Of a stretch of DNA of 64,000 bases, positions 17,787-61,000 are shown piece after piece. Position numbers and translations under genes: made by a program. Source of the DNA: Microbotryum violaceum (lineage: Eukaryota); NCBI GenBank assembly GCA_001244265.2, contig CDLV01000019.1:558001-622000 (forward strand), written 5' to 3'. Under the pieces are notes generated by a model. That model saw nothing but the letters and a program-made list of their open reading frames with translations, searched no databases and was not told the DNA's origin. Every line of letters begins with the position of its first letter. Position 1 is the first letter of the stretch.

Positions 17787-19052
17787 TTGGGGGAGAGGCG
17801 AGGTGGGTTGGGGGTGTGGAGAGGTGCCGGGAAGCTGGAACGAAGGCTGACACTTTCGGCGAGTGGGAATACCGGGCTGAGAGCGATCCGGAATAGCCGG
17901 TTGCGTAATTCGACCCTGCTCAGCTCAGACTCACTCTTGGCGGGCTCCGCTGAGCACGACGGCGAGGACGACGATCGCGGCGCGCGCGTCGACCTCCGCG
18001 TTGTCGTCCTCGGCTGGCCAGACTTCCTCGCCGCTCGCATCGGAGACAGACCCGATCGCTCCAAGCAACGAAGCCTACGACTCTTCCCACTTGAGAAACT
18101 CGCTTCCCGGCCCCGGATCTCCTTCTTCGTCGAACCCAGGCTATTCGCGTGCTTGTCGACGCCGATCTCCGCCAGGGCGGTTCCCAGCGCCGGAGAGCGA
18201 GCCATTGCGAGGGCCGACAGGACTGCGAACGCGATGGAAGGGAAGGAGTACTTCAGCCAAGGGCTGTGCGATTATTTCTTCGGCAACCCGACCGCTTGGG
18301 AGGTCAGGAACAAGGTGTGGCCCAAGAGCTTCGCGATCGGCACCGAAGAGGCGATAGAGGAGGTCATAGCAGCCGTGAACAAGATCGTGAGTCAGGAGGG
18401 CGGAGTCGGTTGGCTGTATTCGTGTTTCTGGTGCAAAGGTCTGACTTGCGCTGCGCTGTGCTCCTCGCAGACCGGCGACAACCGACTCGTCGCGTGCAAG
18501 AACTCGCTCAACTATGTCGGCGTTGCCCCCGACCGTATCGAAACGACGGAGAAGACGGCCGACGTCGTTCTGCTCACCCGCGCTTCCATCAAGCACGACC
18601 CAACGCTTTCAACCATATGGGCTCTGCCCAAGCATGCTCGACCGGACGCCAAGGACGAAGGCAAAAACGGCAAGGGCAAGGGCAAGGACAAGGACAAGGA
18701 CAAGGACAAGGACAAGGACAAGGACAAGGACAAGGACAAGGACAAGGACAAGGACAAGGGCAAGGACAAGGGCAAGGCCACGGCTGTCGGCAAGGGCAAG
18801 GACGATGGCGAGATGGAGGAGGACGATATCGACGCGCTCGTTCGAACGCTCGTCCACGTTGCCGCCGTCGGCGAGGCGAGAGGTGGCGACGCCGACGCGA
18901 GAAAACAGCTCCTACGACGACTGTCCGCCTTATTAGCTACTCCGATCCGAGAGTTTGCTATCGGCTTCACTTTGCGGCACAACCGACTCAAGGTTCACCT
19001 ACTGAACGCATGTGGTCTGTTTCACACCAAGCTGGTTCCGAGTCCAAATTGA
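17787..19052 (+). pseudogene. Truncated fragment resembling the N-terminal half of fungal-type (FunK1/Pkinase_fungal) kinases; kinase domain absent
   Basis: KTADVVLL...AVGEAR...ARKQLLRRLSALLATPIREFAIGFTLRHNRLKVHLLNACG matches by eye the FunK1 pattern (PD...GELK...QLA.Y...QP.RRFV.GFTL...MRLW.FDRSG). In-frame 84-nt intron 18387-18470. No convincing start; stop follows the motif. Confidence 0.5.
18669..18776 (+). repeat. G(A/G)CAAG x18 hexamer tandem repeat encoding (GK)3(DK)12GKDKGK
   Basis: Directly visible, 108 bp. Confidence 0.95.
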
Positions 19053-43026: not shown

Positions 43027-44039
43027 CTCCCTACTCCGTGAGTGCGGAACTGTTAATTGTCGTCAGAGAGGAGAGCAAGCCAAAATTGGTCAGCGTCCGC
43101 AACCCGTAATTGGGTCAACTCGGGGGGCCACTCCACAGGGCGTGGTCGACTGTCAGCTCGGACAACTCTCGCCACCATAGCAAGGGCTAAAAGAGGCGTT
43201 GCTTTAAAGCAAATATGTAGAGGCTCTTTCGGTCGTCGCGACTGGGGGCTAAAAGTTGTCGCCGAGCCGGCAGGTCGGGCAGAGGCGATCAAGGACAACC
43301 GGGTCCTGCGGGCTCCGCGTGATATGGTACTCACTGTATGTAGCAATGTGTCCGATTGGCAGTTCTGGATCGATGTTTCAGAAGGTCTGCACCGGCGTCG
43401 ACGTCTGGGACGACCGCGATAGCTCGAGAGACAGGGGCGAGAGTCAATAATCGGCAACAGGAGAGGTGCACAGGTCCTGCTTGATTATGCCAAAGCTGAT
43501 TTAGTTAAGCGAGTTGTTGTGATGGTGGTCCACAGTAAAAGACCACAGGGTCTCGATGCGCAGGACTGTGGGATGTTGTGGCGCTCGTTCGGCGACGGCG
43601 ACTGTGACTGTGACTGAGCGAGCGACACTGGCGAGGGAGCCGTCAGAGAGAGTGGCGTAAGTAAGCGTAGAGAGGTGGGATGCACAAGACGAGCCGAGGT
43701 AGACCAAATGGCCGGTGGTCTGGGGGGTGGAGATCGGTAAGCAACCAAAAGTCGAGGCGAGCGCGCGTCACGGCGGTCAAAGCGCTAGCGCCGGCAGCTC
43801 GCCAGAACTCGCCCGCTACAAGAACCAACGCCACAGTTTGCAAGCGCCACATATCATCGACCGCTCCTGGCAGAGTGTCGCTACCGATTGAAGCTCGGCG
43901 AAGTACAATCTTACCGGCTCGACAAAGCGTAGGCATAACATATGCCGATCCTAACTCGTTGTTGGAGCGTTTCAGTTACAACTGTTCGAATTCATTATCT
44001 GCTGTGGGCAGTTCGGTCCAACACTGAGGGTCGGTTAAT

Positions 44040-44300
44040 TCCGGTAATACCCATTCTGAAGGGTATTACCCAGGTCTCACCTGGGTATTGTCCCGAGCGC
44101 GCCTGGGTAATACCCAGCTGACGGGTAATACCCAGGCGCGCGGTATCAACCCCACGTCGGGCATTAACTCTCTGACGGGTATTACCCATCTCCGCGGGTA
44201 ATACCCAGCCGACGGGGAATACCCGGGCGCGCGGTAATACCCCCCAGCCGGGTATTAACTTTGACATGGGTAATATCTGCCTGGATGGTTATTCCCCCGG
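44040..44300. repeat. Subterminal array of about 14 GGGTA(A/T)TACCC-like motifs (mirrored at about 48950-49210; related array at about 49915-50036)
   Basis: Visible; typical of CACTA subterminal transposase/TnpA binding arrays. Confidence 0.85.
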
Positions 44301-44384
44301 CCTCCGGGTTTCTTCTGTACGTGCAGCGTAGTTACTACCGGGTCTGGGTTGTTACCACCGCAATACCACCACTCGGATGTCTAG

Positions 44385-45635
44385 AACTTCTCTGTAACAC
44401 TCTTGCCTCTGGCAGTGGATGAAACAGACGAGTGAAGGAAGCCAGTGTATTATTCCAGGTTCAGAAAATTGGGCCGAGCTTCGTCATCCATCCGGTCAAA
44501 GATGTACTCCGGGACTCCTCTCGACCAACCCTCCGATGTATGCGACCAGCTGAGCCCAGGATGCACCGCAGATCCACAATCTCGACCGCTCCTGAAGCAC
44601 GTTTACCTTGAGTGAAGAACAAATTCTGATGCTTGTGCCCTCCTACAACAGACAAAGCCTTCCTCTTTTGCCGCTTTAGCGTCGGCTTGGCAATCGGGCC
44701 CGTTCGACCGTGTCAACAGGTTGCAAGTGGCTCAAACCAAGCGACCGTACCTTCCCAAGCAGGAAGTTCTATGAAGCGAGAGGAATGTGTCAGGGTCGTA
44801 AGGCCGCCTGGCACAACCAAGTGCGAATGCGCGCACCTGCTCCCCATATCGGAACTCATAAATCGCCAAAAGTTGACCAAAATGTTTGACACGATCGGCT
44901 CCTTCGCCTTCACGAGGGAACGCCTGAGAGTTGTCTCTTGCACGACGTCGACTACTGTCTATCAATATATCGTACTGAAAATGCTTCCTCAGCGTAACTG
45001 TAATCGTAACCTGGTACTATAACTTACTGAGATCCATGAAGCATCCCGTGTGTCTGCGGAAACTCTTGCATGCTTTGACAGTCGCTCCGCCGCCGCAATC
45101 CGGTCCCGTCCAGAGTCCATGCGGTAGCCTTCAAAAGAATTGATCGACAAGCTCAAAATTGATGTCCTGATTGCGTCAACCTATGCGGCAGTGAGCCGCA
45201 GATTAGCAATTCGAAATGCCGGATGGATCTGAACCAAATGTGAATACGCACCTTTCGCTTGAAGACCACAGGGGCCAGCTGACCAAACAATTCGCGTGCA
45301 ATGAATTGCGCAACTCGCATTACATCGTTGATACCCGGTCCCTGCTTCAGCTTGTCACTGCGCCGTCCGTAAAGACCCAAAGCTTCGGCCCCCGAGTCCC
45401 CATTTTCACTCGAAGCTTGTCGTGATGCGGCCGCGGACGAACCGCGCATTTGATCTCCCGTTGCGTTCATGAACAACCCCCGTGACTGTTGCATCTGCTC
45501 GAGCTCCATCTTCTTGTCCTACTGATGCTTCATCAGTGCCGGTACAGTGATGGGATAAGAGAAGCGAGGAAAGCGCGAACACGCCATTTGCAAGGCAGCA
45601 TCCGCACACACATCTGCATGGGTTACAGAGAAGTG
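44385..45635 (-). mobile_element. Nested TIR-bounded remnant with a degenerate CACTA-like transposase C-terminus (mirror copy 47614-48866, + strand)
   Basis: 13-bp perfect IR ACTTCTCTGTAAC (44386-44398) / GTTACAGAGAAGT (45622-45634); one end reads CACTT. Broken frames carry RDNS...HFGQLLAIYEF and EIVDLRCILGSAGRI...EYIFDR, which resemble fungal Tnp2-like C-termini. No TSD seen. Confidence 0.55.
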
Positions 45636-45699
45636 GTCAGAGATTTTACATCGAAATCAACTCGTATTTCTTGGGCAGAGCATTTTATTACTGACAACG

Positions 45700-46382
45700 A
45701 TTCACTGCTTCTCGCAACGACCGAGCTGCTTCGCAACTCGTCCGGCTACCGAGACTGGGTCCTCGCCATCCGTTCACGCCTGCCCTCCGGCGTCGTCCGT
45801 TACCTCAACACGGGCGTACCACTCGAGTCTTGGCCTGCTTCGTATGTCCCTCTCTGGGACCACTACGCCTGCTCCTCCATTTGCGCCTCCGTCGATTCGC
45901 AAACTGTCCTCCGGGCCTGTCACCTTACCTCGACGAATCGCTCGCAGCACCCAAGGTCTGGCAGGCACTTCGCGAACGCTACGGCACCGTCTCTGCTGTC
46001 GATCTGCTACCGGTCATCCAACGCCTCTTCAGCTCCGACCCTGTGCCCGTCACTCCCGACCTGTTCCTGCAATTCCGCGACAGTTTCGAAAACGACGCCC
46101 GGCTGCTGCAGGACTCGCAGGTCACCGTGAACGCCCTTCTCGCCTCGCACTTGCTTGCTCGCCTTCCTTCGTCCTTCGACGCCTGGCGCACCACCTTCGT
46201 TGCTGACCAGGGCGATTCCACTGCGATGCCCTCCGCCACCGAGATCTTCACGCGCCTTTACCGCGATGTCAAAGCCCGCCCCGTCGATACTCCTGTTGCC
46301 GCCGTCACCACCGCTGTGATGATGTCACGCCTGCTCAAGCGGTGGTAAGTCTCTGATCGAAGGACCAAGGGAGACCAGACCT

Positions 46383-46415
<33 letters not shown>

Positions 46416-46867
46416 TGTGCCGTCGCCACCCCGCAGGCTCGCCACGGCTGTTCAAGGCCGTGCCCAAATCCGTCTTGTCGCAAGTTGCACTGGCTCCGGG
46501 AATGCCCCGACACCGCCTGGGCCGCCGCCTACCGAGCTCGTCGCACCGCCGAGAAGAAGGCCTCCCAGCCAGTCGCGTCACTAGCCGCAGTGGACACACC
46601 CAACTCTGTGTCGTTCACGGCCTGTCTCCTCGCAACACCTTCGCCATTTCGCAAATCGGCTTGGCTTCTTGACTCGGGCGCTAATCGCCATATGACGAAC
46701 GACAGGGGCCTTTTTTCCGGGCTTCGCACGGTCGCAGGCCCACGAGTTGGAGGCGTCGCCGGCTCCCTCCCTTCCACCGGCTGCGGCACCATTTGCATCC
46801 AGACTTCAACGGGTCCCATCACCGTGTCCAATGTCCTCCTGGTACCGGATCTCCCAAGCAACTTCTT
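45700..46867 (+). mobile_element. Ty1/Copia gag-zinc knuckle-protease fragment, no LTR, truncated (partial mirror copy about 46868-47550, - strand)
   Basis: YRDWVLAIRSRL, KVWQALRERYG, LLARLPSSFDAW (gag); CPNPSCRKLHWLREC knuckle; WLLDSGANRHMT and VLLVPDLPSNFL (Copia protease). Cut at the fold-back junction; in-frame TAA at 46346-46348. Confidence 0.85.
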
Positions 46868-49800
46868 GGTCTGGTCTCCCTTGGTCCTTCGATCAGAGAC
46901 TTACCACCGCTTGAGCAGGCGTGACATCATCACAGCGGTGGTGACGGCGGCAACAGGAGTATCGACGGGGCGGGCTTTGACATCGCGGTAAAGGCGCGTG
47001 AAGATCTCGGTGGCGGAGGGCATCGCAGTGGAATCGCCCTGGTCAGCAACGAAGGTGGTGCGCCAGGCGTCGAAGGACGAAGGAAGGCGAGCAAGCAAGT
47101 GCGAGGCGAGAAGGGCGTTCACGGTGACCTGCGAGTCCTGCAGCAGCCGGGCGTCGTTTTCGAAACTGTCGCGGAATTGCAGGAACAGGTCGGGAGTGAC
47201 GGGCACAGGGTCGGAGCTGAAGAGGCGTTGGATGACCGGTAGCAGATCGACAGCAGAGACGGTGCCGTAGCGTTCGCGAAGTGCCTGCCAGACCTTGGGT
47301 GCTGCGAGCGATTCGTCGAGGTAAGGTGACAGGCCCGGGAGGACAGTTTGCGAATCGACGGAGGCGCAAATGGAGGAGCAGGCGTAGTGGTCCCAGAGAG
47401 GGACATACGAAGCAGGCCAAGACTCGAGTGGTACGCCGTGTTGAGGTAACGGACGACGCCGGAGGGCAGGCGTGAACGGATGGCGAGGACCCAGTCTCGG
47501 TAGCCGGACGAGTTGCGAAGCAGCTCGGTCGTTGCGAGAAGCAGTGAATCGTTGTCAGTAATAAAATGCTCTGCCCAAGAAATACGAGTTGATTTCGATG
47601 TAAAATCTCTGACCACTTCTCTGTAACCCATGCAGATGTGTGTGCGGATGCTGCCTTGCAAATGGCGTGTTCGCGCTTTCCTCGCTTCTCTTATCCCATC
47701 ACTGTACCGGCACTGATGAAGCATCAGTAGGACAAGAAGATGGAGCTCGAGCAGATGCAACAGTCACGGGGGTTGTTCATGAACGCAACGGGAGATCAAA
47801 TGCGCGGTTCGTCCGCGGCCGCATCACGACAAGCTTCGAGTGAAAATGGGGACTCGGGGGCCGAAGCTTTGGGTCTTTACGGACGGCGCAGTGACAAGCT
47901 GAAGCAGGGACCGGGTATCAACGATGTAATGCGAGTTGCGCAATTCATTGCACGCGAATTGTTTGGTCAGCTGGCCCCTGTGGTCTTCAAGCGAAAGGTG
48001 CGTATTCACATTTGGTTCAGATCCATCCGGCATTTCGAATTGCTAATCTGCGGCTCACTGCCGCATAGGTTGACGCAATCAGGACATCAATTTTGAGCTT
48101 GTCGATCAATTCTTTTGAAGGCTACCGCATGGACTCTGGACGGGACCGGATTGCGGCGGCGGAGCGACTGTCAAAGCATGCAAGAGTTTCCGCAGACACA
48201 CGGGATGCTTCATGGATCTCAGTAAGTTATAGTACCAGGTTACGATTACAGTTACGCTGAGGAAGCATTTTCAGTACGATATATTGATAGACAGTAGTCG
48301 ACGTCGTGCAAGAGACAACTCTCAGGCGTTCCCTCGTGAAGGCGAAGGAGCCGATCGTGTCAAACATTTTGGTCAACTTTTGGCGATTTATGAGTTCCGA
48401 TATGGGGAGCAGGTGCGCGCATTCGCACTTGGTTGTGCCAGGCGGCCTTACGACCCTGACACATTCCTCTCGCTTCATAGAACTTCCTGCTTGGGAAGGT
48501 ACGGTCGCTTGGTTTGAGCCACTTGCAACCTGTTGACACGGTCGAACGGGCCCCGATTGCCAAGCCGACGCTAAAGCGGCAAAAGAGGAAGGCTTTGTCT
48601 GTTGTAGGAGGGCACAAGCATCAGAATTTGTTCTTCACTCAAGGTAAACGTGCTTCAGGAGCGGTCGAGATTGTGGATCTGCGGTGCATCCTGGGCTCAG
48701 CTGGTCGCATACATCGGAGGGTTGGTCGAGAGGAGTCCCGGGAGTACATCTTTGACCGGATGGATGACGAAGCTCGGCCCAATTTTCTGAACCTGGAATA
48801 ATACACTGGCTTCCTTCACTCGTCTGTTTCATCCACTGCCAGAGGCAAGAGTGTTACAGAGAAGTTCTAGACATCCGAGTGGTGGTATTGCGGTGGTAAC
48901 AACCCAGACCCGGTAGTAACTACGCTGCACGTACAGAAGAAACCCGGAGGCCGGGGAATAACCATCCAGGCAGATATTACCCATGTCAAAGTTAATACCC
49001 GGCTGGGGGGTATTACCGCGCGCCCGGGTATTCCCCGTCGGCTGGGTATTACCCGCGGAGATGGGTAATACCCGTCAGAGAGTTAATGCCCGACGTGGGG
49101 TTGATACCGCGCGCCTGGGTATTACCCGTCAGCTGGGTATTACCCAGGCGCGCTCGGGACAATACCCAGGTGAGACCTGGGTAATACCCTTCAGAATGGG
49201 TATTACCAGAATTAACCGACCCTCAGTGCGATCGGCTTCAGATACAGGCACAAGCGACCTCGAAGAGGAAGAAGTGCTGGCAACTAGGAACAGGACCCTA
49301 GTGCCCAAGAAGCGAGGTGCGCGCCAAGGAGCAGGATCGCCACAATTGTCGCAGGAGACTCAACAAACAAGCCCCCACGTGGGTTCAAGCGGTCAACGTT
49401 CGACTCCTGCAGCCAGCGGTGTCAGAGGCCCGGGCCCGCCAAGAAACAAGAAGAAGAAGACCGAACACAATCCTAACAGAAGCCAACAGACCAACCCAAA
49501 GAGAGACCTTGGCAACGGTCGAGCTGAAGAAGAAGAAGACGAGGATCAGACAGGATGAAGAAGAAGTCGAGAAATTGGAACGCTCTCCAAGGACTTGAGG
49601 AAGCGGAGCACGCGCGGCAGCTGCGGATGATTTGGATGCCAACGATCCAAACTATGCGGCTACGGGTCAAAGATGGTAACGGAGGTAGACACTTGCTAGA
49701 CAAATACTACAACATCTGGCATGCAATACAAAATGGCTGCATTAACATTAGTAATATGAACGCGAGCATTAGTAGTTTATGATACAGACCCTAATGAGTA

Positions 49801-51626
49801 AGCCAATGCCAATTGAGCTCGCACTAGCATTTAATGATAAAGAACCTAATGAGCAAGCTAATGTGAATTAAGCTCGATCACGCTCCCGAAAAGAGCCCCT
49901 ATTGAGACTTTTTGGATGGTATTACCCATTAAAATTGGAAATACTCGAACCGAAGGGAATGCCGTCTGCTTGGGTAATACCCATTCTGATGGGTAATACC
50001 GCAGCCCAGGCAATACCCATTCAGATGGGTATTCCCCGCCAAAAACGTCGCTCAGTGCAACGTCAGAACGTACCCCTACAAATCGAATCGTTCCAGGTTC
50101 CAGTACTTTGGAATCAACTCAGAATCGACTGCGTCACATTCCGAAACGAGCTCGAACCACTCGAATTTGTGATGCTCTTACTGAATCGATTTCAAATCAC
50201 TGAAACTGTTCTGGAACGATTTCATAGTTCCATAGTTAGGGGTGGGTTTTGCTAAGGACACCCAAATGGCAGCCCGATCTCTGACGGTCAAGCCAGTCTT
50301 CCATATTCTACTCGCGGGACCCCGCTCGAGATAGATTGAATGTTTCTCTGGCCAATAGGGGCTTGCGCCGTCGCGCCGCCGGATCCCGTGACCTGCTGGC
50401 TCGCGATTCCCACGTGCACGACCCGGTGGCTCTATAACTTGCGACGCACGCGCGTGAAACGCTTCAAGGGAAGGAACTTCGGTCAGAGCCCCATTCCATT
50501 CACTAGTGCATTGCTACCTTAAAGATACGGCTCTTGAACATCGTGTGCTCGGGGGCGCTAATCCCAGGGGGGTTTTTCGTAGGCGCGCGGCCGCCGCACG
50601 TGCGGTGGGGTTGACTGCAGTGGGCGAACGTGCAAGAATTGAAAAGTTCTCCGCTATCGCCAGAAGGAGCGACAGACGATGGTGTTTCCGCTAGCAGGAA
50701 AAAACCAAGGCAGACCGGATGAATCTGGGTTGGTGGGCGGTGAGCTTGTAGCGCGAATTAATTTGTTGAAGTTCCACTCGAGATTGCAGTGCCTCCGTGT
50801 GATGAGAGCCCGTCACGGGTAGATTGGCGGCCCCTGTCACTGTTACCGGTCGTCCTTTACGACTTTCGGTAGATTCCTTGAAGCGAGCCAACTCTTATGG
50901 GTGAACATGGCGGGACCTGACCGTCAGACTTCGACTGGACGATTCGATAGATTCTGTAACTGCAAACTCGGTTAAATCCGGTCGCCGGTAGCCGCCGCCG
51001 GTCGGGTCGACTTTAAGAATCGAAGGCCAGCAATGTTCGGAGGACCGAGGCCCAAATCAAACAGTGGGATTTGACCTTCTCCAAGACCTTGCAGAGACAT
51101 TCATGTGTTCCCCCTCTAATGCAGCAGAGTTCGTAGCGGAAGTTGACTCACGCGCGGTCGATTTCAGCGCCAGCGCTCGGTCTTCGGCGATCCACGGGGA
51201 TCAGCATGGCAGTAGCAAGCGCATATGGCGCGATCGGCCCACGCTGCGCCAAGTCTGGCCAAGTCGCTGTGACTTGCTGCTTCAGCAGCTCCGCAGCTCG
51301 TGTCGCTCAGCTTCCTCCCGCACCCTCCCCCCCGCATCCCTCCCTCCATTCCTTTCTTCAAAACACTACTCTGTACGTGGTCGATCCCCGTCGTCGTCAA
51401 GCGTTTCCATGCCCACTGCTGACCTGACTTGTTCTATCATCACCACCTACGTTGTACATCTTTGAAATTTGTCGGGCCTTTTTTCACGTCGCGCTCGCGC
51501 TCGCACCATCCGCCAACCCCGCTGCCACGTCCTCCCCTGCCCGCTGTTCGCCGTCGCCCCTCCCTGCCTCTACCGTCCGCGCCGCTCTCTCCCCCTCTCA
51601 CCTCGCCCTGTCATACAATAGCCAAA

Positions 51627-58002: not shown

Positions 58003-61000
58003 TCACAACTCCCAATCTCGAGCCCCAGGAACAAAGCCCGCCCGAGAGAGAAAATCTCGATTGAACGCTCTAAGTGCACTGGGGATCGAGGGAGGGGCCA
58101 CGACGCGGTCCTTCTCGAACCGCTGGTGGACGTGCCAGCGCAGCAAGTGCAACCGCTGGAACCCAATCGCACAAGCCAACCGAACCCACATCCACTTCGA
58201 GGTCGTTCGCCCACGACCCGCAAAAGGGGAGCCCCATAGTCAGCTGCTCCTGGATGAACGTCGACGGATCGACGTCGGTATCCTCGATACCGAGCTTGTC
58301 GAACAGGATGCGTAGCACCCCGCTCCAGTAGCTGGCCGAGTACGCGCACCCGAAAAAGTAGTGCGACACCGTCTCGATGACCGCTGCATCGTTGCCACAG
58401 AACAGACACGACGACGAAGAAGCATGGCCCTGGACATGTTGCTTCTTGCGCGTCGGTGTCACATCGTACATAAGCCGCCAGTGGGTGTCCTGCTCCGCAG
58501 CAGACGGGAACCGGTCATGAAGCCAACTCCAGAAGCGCTGCCTCCCGCTCTGAGAAGTCCCCTCGGGGAAACGCTTGACCCGAGGCTCCTGAGGTTGCCC
58601 ACCAGGCAGAGCTCGGTCCTGACCGTCCTTCCCCGGGAACCGAACCGTGTTCACAAGCCGACGAAGCTTGCGAATCGTGAACGGTCGAGTGAGCCCAAAG
58701 AAGTTGAAGCACCGAGGATGGGGATCCTCCTTGAGAGGGATCCTAGCGGGTCGCACCGCGGTCTTGGGCAGCAAGGCTTTCGCCTTGAGCTTCTGACCAA
58801 CGCGCGCCCAGACGTGCTCGTGCCGCAGGGCTGGTTCCTTAGAGTGCTGCCAGAAACCGCGTCGATGACCAACCAGAGCCCAGCCCTTTCCTTCGTCCCT
58901 CCAGTACAGGTCCGCCATCTGCGCAAACTTCGCCACTGCGTCCGCATCGTCATATGCGTGCTTGGCACCTTCAGCATAGAGTGAAGGGAGGCGAGGCGGA
59001 AGCGAGAGCAATTCGGGGAGCGTAAGTTGTTCGGACTTGATGGTTGGTAAGGTGACCCTGGCCGCTGCAACGACTGCCCCCAGCGCGTCGAGTCGCGATA
59101 CAGCTTCTCGACCCGAGCCGTGCTGCTGAAGAACCCCCACGGACTGAAATCGCGGGTCGCAGCGACGAGGGACCTCCAGCTCTCGCGAGCTAGGGGCGCC
59201 CAGATCGCCTCGTTCGAGCCCGCCACAGCATCCCAAAATCGAAGCGCCACCGAATGAACGATGTCGCCGATCGAAATCAAGCCCAAGCCACCGTCCTCCC
59301 GAGCCTGGAACACGAAATCGCGAGCGACGGTATTTCGCCCTGCTCCTCCCCAGACAAAATCCGTAAGTGCTGTCTCCGCCGCCTTAATGAACCATTGAGG
59401 CGGTATGTCGAAGGACAGCACGTGGAGGACCGTCGAGATGATGTGAGCGTTGGCATAGAAGACCTTCCCACTCGGCGAAAGTGTCCGGTCTCCAGCGGCG
59501 CGGGTCTTGGCCTTGATCCTGTCAAGAACATGGGTCCAAAACAGTTTCGAGTCACCATGGCGAAAGAAGGCATAGCCGCACCACTTGAAGCTCTCCCCCT
59601 CCTGCACCGATGGCAGCGCCTGCGCAGTCTCGTCCCGAAGCCAGTTCGGTCCGAGTGGTAGCACCAGCGTCTTGTCCGTGTTGGTCTTCCCGTTGGTTGC
59701 CTTGTACCACGCCTGCGACAGCGTTTCCAGCTTCGACAATGCCGCCGGTGACTCCACCACCACCACAGCATCGTCGGCAAACGCCAGATGCGTAAGCTGC
59801 GCACGCGGCCCCCCTGGCCACACCTTCTGCAGGTCGAGCGCGATCCCGCGCCGAACGAGGGCGTCGAGGAAGGGCTGGAACGTGATGTTCCAAACCGGGC
59901 ACGAGAGGGGATCCCCCTGACCGAGACCACACAGCAACCGCACCAACTCCGTGGGGAACCCATTGATGAGGTAGCGCACCCCCAGAGTCTCGGGATCGTA
60001 CAGAGCGCGCAGCAGGGAAATGAAACGCTCACCAAAGCCAAAGGCCTCGAAGACGTCGAAGATCCATGCGTGATCGACCCGATCGTACGCGCTCTGCTGA
60101 TCCAAGGACAAGAGGGCGCCCTCGGGGAAAACTTCAGTGCCTAGCGACTTGAGTTTTTCGAGAAGGAGAGTGAGATGACTTCCCGCGTCTGCTGAACGTC
60201 TTGATGGCATGAACCCGTGTTGCGCAGGCGGCAAAAGCTCGCCGAGCACCCCATTGAGTCGCGCCACCAAGACCTTGCTGAGGACCTTGTAGGTTGTCTC
60301 GCGCAGTGTGATCGGTCGGTATGCCCCAGTGATTTCAGATTGGCCCCCGGTTTGTTCTTGGGCAAAAGCCGCACCAGCCCCTCTGCCAAGGACGCCGTCA
60401 TTTTACCCCCCTCCCAAATCGAGTTGAACAGGTCCAACAGCTTGGGAGCGAAGTAGGTTGGCAGCGCCTTGAAAAGCTCATACGGAATGCCCGAAGGCCC
60501 CGGTGATCGCCCTGAATCCGTCTTCTTCAACGCCGCTTCGACCTCGGAAAGGTTGAAGGGCTCGTCAAGCGCCACTCTGGCTTGAAGGGGCAGCCGACGA
60601 CCGAACGTAGGGTCCGAGCGGTCGTCATCGTAGCATTTCGCTGCGCGAATAGGGTCGAGCAGGGACCGACGTGCGTTCGTCGGGTCGCCACGAGCTGGGT
60701 CCGGCGTGAAGAGCGACTGTGCGTGCCGTGAAGCAATGCCCAGCGCCTCCTGCATGTCAACGGTCTCGGTGCCATCCACATCCTCCAGCGAGACGATGCT
60801 CGTCTGGCGACTCCGGCGGTTGAGACGCGTGCGAATGCTTGCCGATTGACCTTCCCTCGAGTCGACTGACGGCACATGCGCACGAATGCGCAGCCACTGA
60901 GCCTCCTTTACCGCCAACTGATCCAACTGCGACTTGGCGAGAGCATACGCATCGCGCTCGGCCTCATTCATATGCTCACCGCGTGCCTCCAACGCCTCCA

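Follow-up and report, generated by a model that had tools for sequence, protein, structure and literature searches.

A three-ended CACTA/EnSpm-like element of Microbotryum with an interior probably rebuilt by break repair

Introduction

How does a cut-and-paste transposon come to hold an inverted duplicate of one of its own ends, and a piece of a retrotransposon, in the place of its coding interior? This question is raised by a 6,036-bp element (44022-50057) in the genome of the anther-smut fungus Microbotryum violaceum, which lies in a 64,000-nt stretch of DNA that we refer to as the window (positions 558,001 to 622,000 of the forward strand of contig CDLV01000019.1, GenBank assembly GCA_001244265.2; all coordinates are counted from its first letter). 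An initial annotation, made from the letters of the window, had recognized at this locus a CACTA-type transposon with three ends. Here we describe the structure of the element, the parent of each of its pieces, the nature of each of its joints and the single insertion, with a duplicated CAA, by which it entered the locus. On these observations we base the proposal that it is probably a genuine, non-autonomous CACTA/EnSpm-like copy, the interior of which was rebuilt by break repair after cutting by a transposase. The locus offers a base-level record of a fungal cut-and-paste transposon losing its autonomy, with its interior swapped for retrotransposon DNA and its own reversed end.

Results

A single insertion with three transposon ends

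The element is delimited by CAA followed by CACTGAG at 44019-44028 and by CTCAGTG followed by CAA at 50051-50060, and its left and right termini agree in seven of seven bases and in 12 of the first 15. The claim of the initial annotation that this is one insertion, with CACTG-type ends and a 3-bp target site duplication (TSD), is correct to the base, with CAA on both sides. A search of public sequencing runs returned 19 runs from six studies that hold 45-76% of the window's words, and we compared the window with the Logan contigs (k=31) of four runs from four studies, namely X1, X2, X6 and X9; statements below about contigs refer to these four. Contigs of the single-copy left flank enter the element for 29-51 nt (to 44050-44072), and those of the right flank begin at 50029-50034, 24-29 nt within it, in 4/4 runs. 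As such stops about 30 nt inside are the expected behavior of k=31 contigs at the edge of a repeat, they place the boundaries of the repeat family at 44022 and 50057. As for an empty site, 4/4 of the runs examined carry the insertion; in runs X20 and X21 the words of the window are almost entirely absent.

With at most one mismatch allowed, the subterminal motif GGGTAATACCC is matched 32 times in the 64 kb of the window, where 0.38 matches would be expected, and 31 of these 32 fall into three clusters, which coincide with the three ends (Table 1); the subterminal arrays that had been noted earlier are hence seen at every one of them. Termini of the form CACT(A/G)...(C/T)AGTG, a 3-bp TSD and subterminal motif arrays are the features of the CACTA/EnSpm (CMC) elements, and fit an assignment to a CACTA/EnSpm-like family that is drawn from the ends, as this copy has no DDE transposase of the CMC type. 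We also considered the outer ends as those of a long terminal repeat (LTR), with TG...CA at 44025 and 50054, and ruled this out, as the 5-bp flanks are unlike. No further copy of any part of the element was found elsewhere in the 64-kb window, and a metagenome scan with the 20-nt left terminus gave 0 matches.

Table 1. Pieces and joints of the element, in order along the window
Feature	Coordinates	Strand	Description
Left TSD copy, CAA	44019..44021	.	read in the window; junction crossed by flank contigs in 4/4 runs
Left part	44022..45711	+	CACTGAG terminus; GGGTAATACCC array at 44042-44242; non-coding/leader region; family sequence stops at 45711
Small open reading frame (ORF)	45153..45518	-	87% identity to P0022, a hypothetical protein of 105 aa from Microbotryum lychnidis-dioicae; without a known domain
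Copia-like gag fragment	45712..46300	+	starts at about codon 32 of the polyprotein; 5'-truncated; no LTR
118-nt patch	46301..46418	+	not in canonical copia; bounded by a GCCGTC repeat; near-perfect match of the left arm stops within it, at 46381
Gag C-terminus, zinc knuckle and first part of aspartic protease	46419..46862	+	Pol_BBD, 7e-14; 98% identity to P0001; unique spacer of the palindrome
Central joint, 11-nt overlap TCCCAAGCAAC	46852..46862	.	common to the protease fragment and the inverted repeat piece
Inverted copia-derived pieces	46852..47537	-	46868-47537 mirrors 45712-46381
Inverted second left part	47538..49228	-	array at 49008-49208; terminates at ...CTCAGTG, 49228
Non-family CGA	49229..49231	.	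outside the terminus and the family sequence; reverse complement of the next bases, TCG
Right part	49232..50057	+	last 108 codons of the 3' ORF (49232-49558); array at 49917-50037; terminus ...CTCAGTG
Right TSD copy, CAA	50058..50060	.	read in the window; junction crossed by flank contigs in 4/4 runs

The inverted arms are of one lineage

When 44022-46400 is globally aligned with the reverse complement of 46850-49228, two inverted arms emerge, 44022-46381 (2,360 nt) and 46868-49228 (2,361 nt), on either side of a 486-nt spacer, and identity collapses past 46381 and 46868. The inverted copy finishes on the last base of the terminus, 49228, and is followed by the letters CGATCGG; the earlier observation of a third, inverted left end, which halts exactly at the last base of the terminal inverted repeat and brings no flanking DNA with it, is thereby borne out. 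The central 651 nt of this palindrome fold with a z-score of -19.

The arms differ by one substitution and five single-base indels, and all five indels lie within homopolymer runs. At each of these five positions it is the longer homopolymer that is carried by the short-read contigs, three times as inserted letters (45910, 47435 and 48952) and twice as deduced from the gap counts of the contigs (48554 and 48742). The five indels are probably consensus errors of long reads within the repeat. The flanks agree with the contigs, with 0-3 differences and zero indels over about 1.3 kb. Since the contigs carry the longer homopolymer and the flanks are free of indels, the arms are probably identical save for one CpG site at most. 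The latter is the sole substitution, with C at 44042 against T at the corresponding 49208 of the inverted arm, a CpG-to-TpG change. Moreover, six private substitutions and a 5-nt indel relative to the collapsed family contig are common to the two arms, at mirrored positions (e.g. 44968/48281 and 45669/47580), and the arms therefore derive from one lineage.

Around 44042, the flank contig of X6 reaches 44072, exactly 30 nt further, which would be expected if C were private to the outer left end and T present in all other copies, among them the inner left end; the flank contigs of X1, X2 and X9 stop at 44050-44051, and the pattern of a private C is thus inconsistent among the runs. Differences from the contigs that have the look of consensus errors, namely in homopolymer length and a GG missing at 49548 (4/4 runs), are confined to the repeat, with none in the roughly 1.3 kb of flank. 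Polishing seems to have been poorer in the repeats of this assembly than in its unique DNA, and some of the differences may instead be true differences between this copy and its family. A practical warning follows for palindromes of this kind: the five arm differences are probably errors of the assembly, and the apparent point of fold-back is, as set out below, a boundary of the alignment.

The element retains the two outer parts of its family

Contigs of the left-part family, at about 10x the depth of the flanks, diverge from the window after 45711, as seen in the left arm for X2 and X9 and at its mirror position, 47538, for X1 and X6 (4/4 runs in all). The 30 letters that follow 45711 in these family contigs include an ATG in an open frame. 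On the other side, contigs of the right-part family run at about 6-10x flank depth, and the segment 49232-49558 matches the C-terminal 108 residues of P0023, a protein of about 340 aa, with 99% identity over 98% of those 108 aa. The cluster of P0023 has 8 members from two Microbotryum species. With regard to the second, TnpA-like gene that CACTA/EnSpm elements have near the 3' end, its proteins matched no Pfam family (E up to 10), and a protein atlas queried with the family ORF of about 340 aa returned only unnamed basidiomycete clusters, with scores under 0.9. Between 45711, a point just ahead of the likely start codon, and 49232, in the middle of the 3' ORF, the original interior is thus missing. 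The closest proteins of the pieces of the element come from Microbotryum silenes-dioicae or M. lychnidis-dioicae, in line with an anther-smut fungus of that group as the source of the window.

Contig depth in X1/X2/X6/X9 is 5/71/36/27 for the flanks, 52/713/387/301 for the left part and 41-50/474-599/226-266/171-226 for the right part. Relative to the flanks, these values suggest a family of about 7-11 copies, and the ratio of left-part to right-part depth, 1.05-1.7 across the four runs, fits one extra left part at this locus without being decisive. A separate contig of X9, with a depth of 51 that corresponds to about 2 copies, links subterminal motifs that lie 4,857 nt apart (44257 / 49115 and 49147 / 48993); 8-9 additional letters stand at its joints, and its short side measures 25 nt, too little for a judgement. 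It may come from a family member whose subterminal array is arranged differently, or from a very short element bounded by two left ends.

The interior is a captured fragment of a copia-like retrotransposon

The coding interior is replaced at 45712-46862 by a 5'-truncated fragment of a copia-like LTR retrotransposon, which has 95-98% identity to Microbotryum polyproteins; the protease that the initial annotation had attributed to the element itself belongs to this fragment. From 45712 the window encodes ATTELLRNSSGYRDW..., which corresponds to residue ~33 onward of the copia-like polyproteins P0001 and P0004, and a weak match to Retrotran_gag_2 falls in the first copia segment of Table 1. Contigs of the copia element, at about 31x flank depth, match the window from 45712 and have other sequence ahead of that position in 4/4 runs; their depth indicates roughly 30 copies of this retrotransposon in the Microbotryum genome. 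Canonical copia contigs leave the window after 46862, again in 4/4 runs, and continue with the expected protease sequence. The fragment thus stops within the protease; integrase, reverse transcriptase, RNase H and the LTRs are absent, and no direct repeats surround it. It is a captured fragment rather than an insertion of a retrotransposon.

Within the fragment, a patch of 118 nt interrupts the canonical sequence. The joint that skips it, from 46300 to 46419, is seen in contigs of 4/4 runs, twice as a mirror image, and P0001, P0003 and P0004 read ...PVAAVATPQ... through this position without it. The patch resembles pieces of the RNase H region of a related and very abundant copia variant; the translation of its first portion is TTAVMMSRLLKRW, which may be compared with MLSRLLKRCGVADSTTDAEY of P0003 and AAVSWSSRLQSRVADST of P0004. 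Neither the patch nor the spacer has a second match within the window. Part of the patch had a tRNA-like look, which we dropped after ARAGORN found no tRNA in it and Rfam gave only two chance-level matches to mir-101 (E 0.54). A solo LTR, suggested by the 6-bp repeat GCCGTC, was likewise ruled out, because TG...CA ends fit in no register.

The bins 46328-46571 and 46816-47059 show a summed contig depth of about 110-320x the flanks in 4/4 runs, and the RNase H-like piece of the patch therefore belongs to something far commoner than the copia element of about 31 copies. The contigs suggest tandem units of 72-75 nt of this RNase H-like piece at other places, and the sister-species gene models P0001, P0003 and P0004 run through it in antisense.

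The inner joints look like those of break repair

Three joints hold the pieces of the interior together. At 45711/45712 the end of the family contig and the start of the copia contig fall on neighboring bases, with an overlap of 0 and a filler of 0. At the center, the protease fragment and the inverted repeat piece share 11 nt (Table 1); contigs of the abundant variant match from 46852 and carry 17 other letters ahead of it, as seen at least in X1, X6 and X9. The initial annotation had placed here, at 46867/46868, a break that was healed by fold-back. P0001 and P0004 hold the string that the window encodes across it, SNFLVWSPLVLRSETYHRLS, without interruption, and so do the contigs that match from 46852; 46867/46868 is therefore a mere alignment boundary of the arms and not a real joint, and the actual joint is the overlap at 46852-46862. 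It is also of note for the history of the palindrome that the right arm has, at 46852-46867, 16 nt of the natural continuation of the repeat that the left arm lacks, the left arm leaving the natural sequence of the repeat at 46381/46382. The present left arm was therefore not the sole template of the right one.

At the third joint, the three bases CGA lie between the inner terminus and the right part. In 4/4 runs the family contigs have 98 letters of a different sequence ahead of 49232, and these end in ...TAT where the window has CGA; across the same position P0023 reads ...QDGVY and then SASDTG, the family sequence of the window resuming in the middle of the ORF. Three random filler bases would be palindromic with the following TCG with a chance of 1/64. 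P nucleotides are a pattern left by a hairpin-sealed DNA end that is nicked three bases off its center, and the CGA filler at 49229-49231 looks like such nucleotides. The initial annotation had the left end re-inserted into its own element, which the joint contradicts: three non-family bases intervene, and the family sequence resumes only at 49232. As CGA is foreign to the family, and the inner terminus does not directly adjoin element sequence, the junction at 49228-49232 is of the end-joining type.

When a transposase joins an end, the terminus stands directly on target DNA and is accompanied by a 3-bp duplication. Taken together, the inner joints, which are blunt, overlapping by 11 nt and filled with a 3-nt palindrome, all look like break-repair joints, and none has the transposase form.

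Neighboring genes and other features of the window

The element lies between genes, with some 1.5 kb separating it from the start of a methionine synthase gene further downstream. The flanking genes code for an inositol polyphosphate kinase and for the cobalamin-independent methionine synthase, both of which are eukaryotic. About 8 kb to the right, a retroelement is marked by an open frame of 583 aa at 58651-60402 (minus strand) with the reverse transcriptase domain RVT_1 (2e-22); it has no sequence match to the copia fragment. At 18630-18839, units of AAGGAC/AAGGGC recur with a 12-nt period in a long open frame, and probably encode a low-complexity protein segment rich in Lys, Asp and Gly.

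Discussion

Probable origin of the interior

On balance, we think it probable that the locus is a real, non-autonomous CACTA/EnSpm-like copy that was cut by a transposase and whose interior was then remade by break repair. Cutting of a left end by the transposase is suggested by the exact terminus that lies in the middle of the structure; beyond the terminus, the order of events and the hairpin intermediate are likewise what we infer from the joints. In an abortive or aberrant transposition, the transposase would have cut one left end precisely. This cut end would then have been joined to, or copied onto, a break inside a copy of the same element, possibly by way of a hairpin-opened end; end joining or synthesis-dependent repair, switching to a paralogous derivative copy and to the copia element as templates, would have closed the gap. 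Abortive gap repair that leaves filler DNA is a route to defective elements in maize.

Among the ways in which such repair could have run, we prefer one complex event that followed cutting or excision, with template-directed extension of both chromosomal ends. The left chromosomal end would have been extended on the derivative copy and then on the copia element. The right chromosomal end would have been extended on the right part of the family up to 49232, acquired the three extra bases, and been extended on the derivative copy from its terminus inward; the two new strands would finally have annealed through the 11-nt overlap. Alternatively, a left-end fragment that had been physically excised may have been ligated to a hairpin-opened break at 49232.

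Several points weigh against this proposal. The contigs of the four runs cover no window-specific joint with repeat on both sides, including 46852-46868 and 49228-49232. The listed contigs fully explain the mean depth of the bins 49012-49255 (X1, X6), 45596-45839 (X2, X9) and 47304-47547 (X1), and from this depth arithmetic it follows that no contig lies over 49184-49231, nor over 45711/45712 or its mirror. Contigs tend to drop short links of low depth, and their silence at the inner joints bears neither on presence nor on absence. The cutting by a transposase is read from the exact terminus and from a filler that resembles P nucleotides and would arise by chance in one of 64 cases, and the transposase of the family was not seen. 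The extra 16 nt of the right arm force the assumption of a paralogous derivative, or of an earlier, longer palindrome. Finally, histories of one event and of multiple events are indistinguishable with the present data.

The foremost rival, which we regard as unlikely, is a nested self-insertion that subsequently decayed. A sister derivative would have inserted, inverted, at TCG in the right part, in the manner of the double Ds of maize; later the center of the palindrome would have broken, with loss of the right end of the inserted copy and capture of about 470 nt of copia DNA, and last an abortive excision at the inner left end would have left CGA as its footprint. The exact terminus at 49228 adjoins TCG, and CGA abutting TCG resembles an opened hairpin of the flank; the additional natural sequence of the right arm fits a longer palindrome that lost its center, and the 11-nt overlap at the central joint also agrees with such a history. 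Long inverted repeats do break at their center, and the capture of retrotransposon cDNA at breaks is known from yeast. However, three separate events are needed, nothing dates them relative to each other, and neither a second right end nor a duplicated target triplet is left, the locus having three ends only.

Very improbable, in our assessment, is a one-ended or sister-chromatid integration of a left end into its own element by the transposase, combined with a simple fold-back at 46867/46868. It would explain why the inverted copy finishes on the last base of the terminus and why the arms are nearly identical, and aberrant transposition can indeed create inverted duplications; against it, the terminus is separated from the element by three non-family bases with no duplication of a target, the supposed point of fold-back is contiguous in other copies and hence offers no novel joint, and the 16 nt of the right arm are absent from the left one. 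An assembly artefact, in which the interior was mis-built from long reads of several repeat copies or from a chimeric palindromic read and the true locus holds an ordinary member of the family, is very unlikely. In its favor, the repeat is multi-copy, the homopolymer indels of the arms are typical of a poorly polished long-read consensus, and the want of a contig of the four runs across the window-specific inner joints would agree (weakly, as contigs drop such links). Against it, joints that overlap by only 0-11 nt are not a product of overlap assemblers, and a fold-back read should extend into the left flank, whereas the inverted copy halts at the terminus and is followed by the right part. 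To account for the five distinct non-family joints in this 6-kb stretch, several chimeras would have had to arise independently and survive consensus. The flanks are clean, with 0-3 differences and no indels over about 1.3 kb.

A possible role in silencing

The reconstructed interior has the feature that characterizes inverted-duplication silencers, in that a terminal and subterminal part of the element is duplicated in inverted orientation, here as arms of 2,360 and 2,361 nt. To our knowledge, inverted duplications are the only natural triggers known for the de novo silencing of DNA transposons in maize. By analogy, the 5.2-kb palindrome might act as a natural killer locus that silences the whole CACTA-like family through RNA interference (RNAi), a proposal that we consider quite doubtful. 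Read-through from a promoter in the left end would yield a long hairpin RNA over the terminus, the subterminal array and the leader, and the RNAi machinery of Microbotryum would cut this RNA into small RNAs that silence the family. The species group of the host is reported to possess one Dicer, two Argonautes and one RNA-dependent RNA polymerase (PMC4469406). As a candidate hairpin locus in a fungus that keeps both RNAi and a CpG-directed mutation process, the element offers a test of whether a trigger of the maize type acts outside plants.

Less likely still is a new mobile unit of the foldback type, bounded already by the two left ends. The initial annotation had raised the palindrome 44022-49228 as such a unit; it is flanked by CAA on the left and by CGA on the right, and thus has no TSD of its own and did not insert here as a unit.

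Comparison with known systems

In the rust fungi, which belong to the same subphylum, Pucciniomycotina, EnSpm families have CAC..GTG termini and 3-bp TSDs (Kojima 2025, PMC12730594). The Microbotryum element is like these EnSpm/CACTA families in its 5'-CAC..GTG-3' termini and 3-bp TSD; those families are defined by their transposase, whereas the comparison made here is of terminal features. For Microbotryum itself, CACTA is listed among the annotated classes of elements with terminal inverted repeats (bioRxiv 10.1101/2022.08.03.502670), and elements with such repeats account for 12% of the transposable-element sequence of M. lychnidis-dioicae (PMC4469406). Within the literature covered, which did not extend to supplementary libraries of transposable elements, we came across no account of this family, nor of a CACTA element with three ends or a CACTA-like one of this form in a fungus, and CACTA/EnSpm elements of Microbotryum are mentioned only at the level of the class.

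Of the known rearrangements, four invite comparison. The double Ds of maize consists of one Ds inserted, inverted, in a copy of itself, and it has four ends and clean nesting. Both it and the present element hold their own sequence in inverted orientation and have more than two ends; here, in contrast, there are three ends, repair-type joints and no inner target duplication, that is, no complete second copy with both its ends and a duplicated triplet, and non-family bases lie at the inner end. The gap-repair fillers by which Ac elements turn into Ds elements are alike in that the interior is replaced by copied pieces, at joints with zero or short overlap; typical fillers are tens of bases long, whereas that of the Microbotryum element comes to about 3.5 kb and includes its own inverted end.

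Mu killer is a natural inverted duplication of one terminal inverted repeat and the adjoining part of an element, a partial MuDR, and a hairpin transcript is possible in principle for the present palindrome as well. However, Mu killer derives from Mutator, is located outside an intact element and has been proven to silence in trans, whereas the duplication described here is internal to a copy with both outer ends preserved. The maize Ac composite insertions p1-ww-id1 and p1-ww-id4 are attributed to alternative transposition followed by fusion of broken ends (bioRxiv 10.1101/2020.01.07.897926). They are described there as inverted repeats of the 5' terminal 1.8-3.9 kb of Ac, bordered by transposon ends with a normal TSD, and in these respects the likeness is close. 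The Ac composites are hAT elements of a plant, with 8-bp TSDs, megabase-scale duplications of the flanks and silencing that was shown experimentally. The Microbotryum element, in contrast, is CACTA-like and fungal, has no duplication of its flanks, and carries a fragment of a retrotransposon at its center. Transposon rearrangements of this kind are known, and the element adds an instance from a fungus and from a CACTA-like family.

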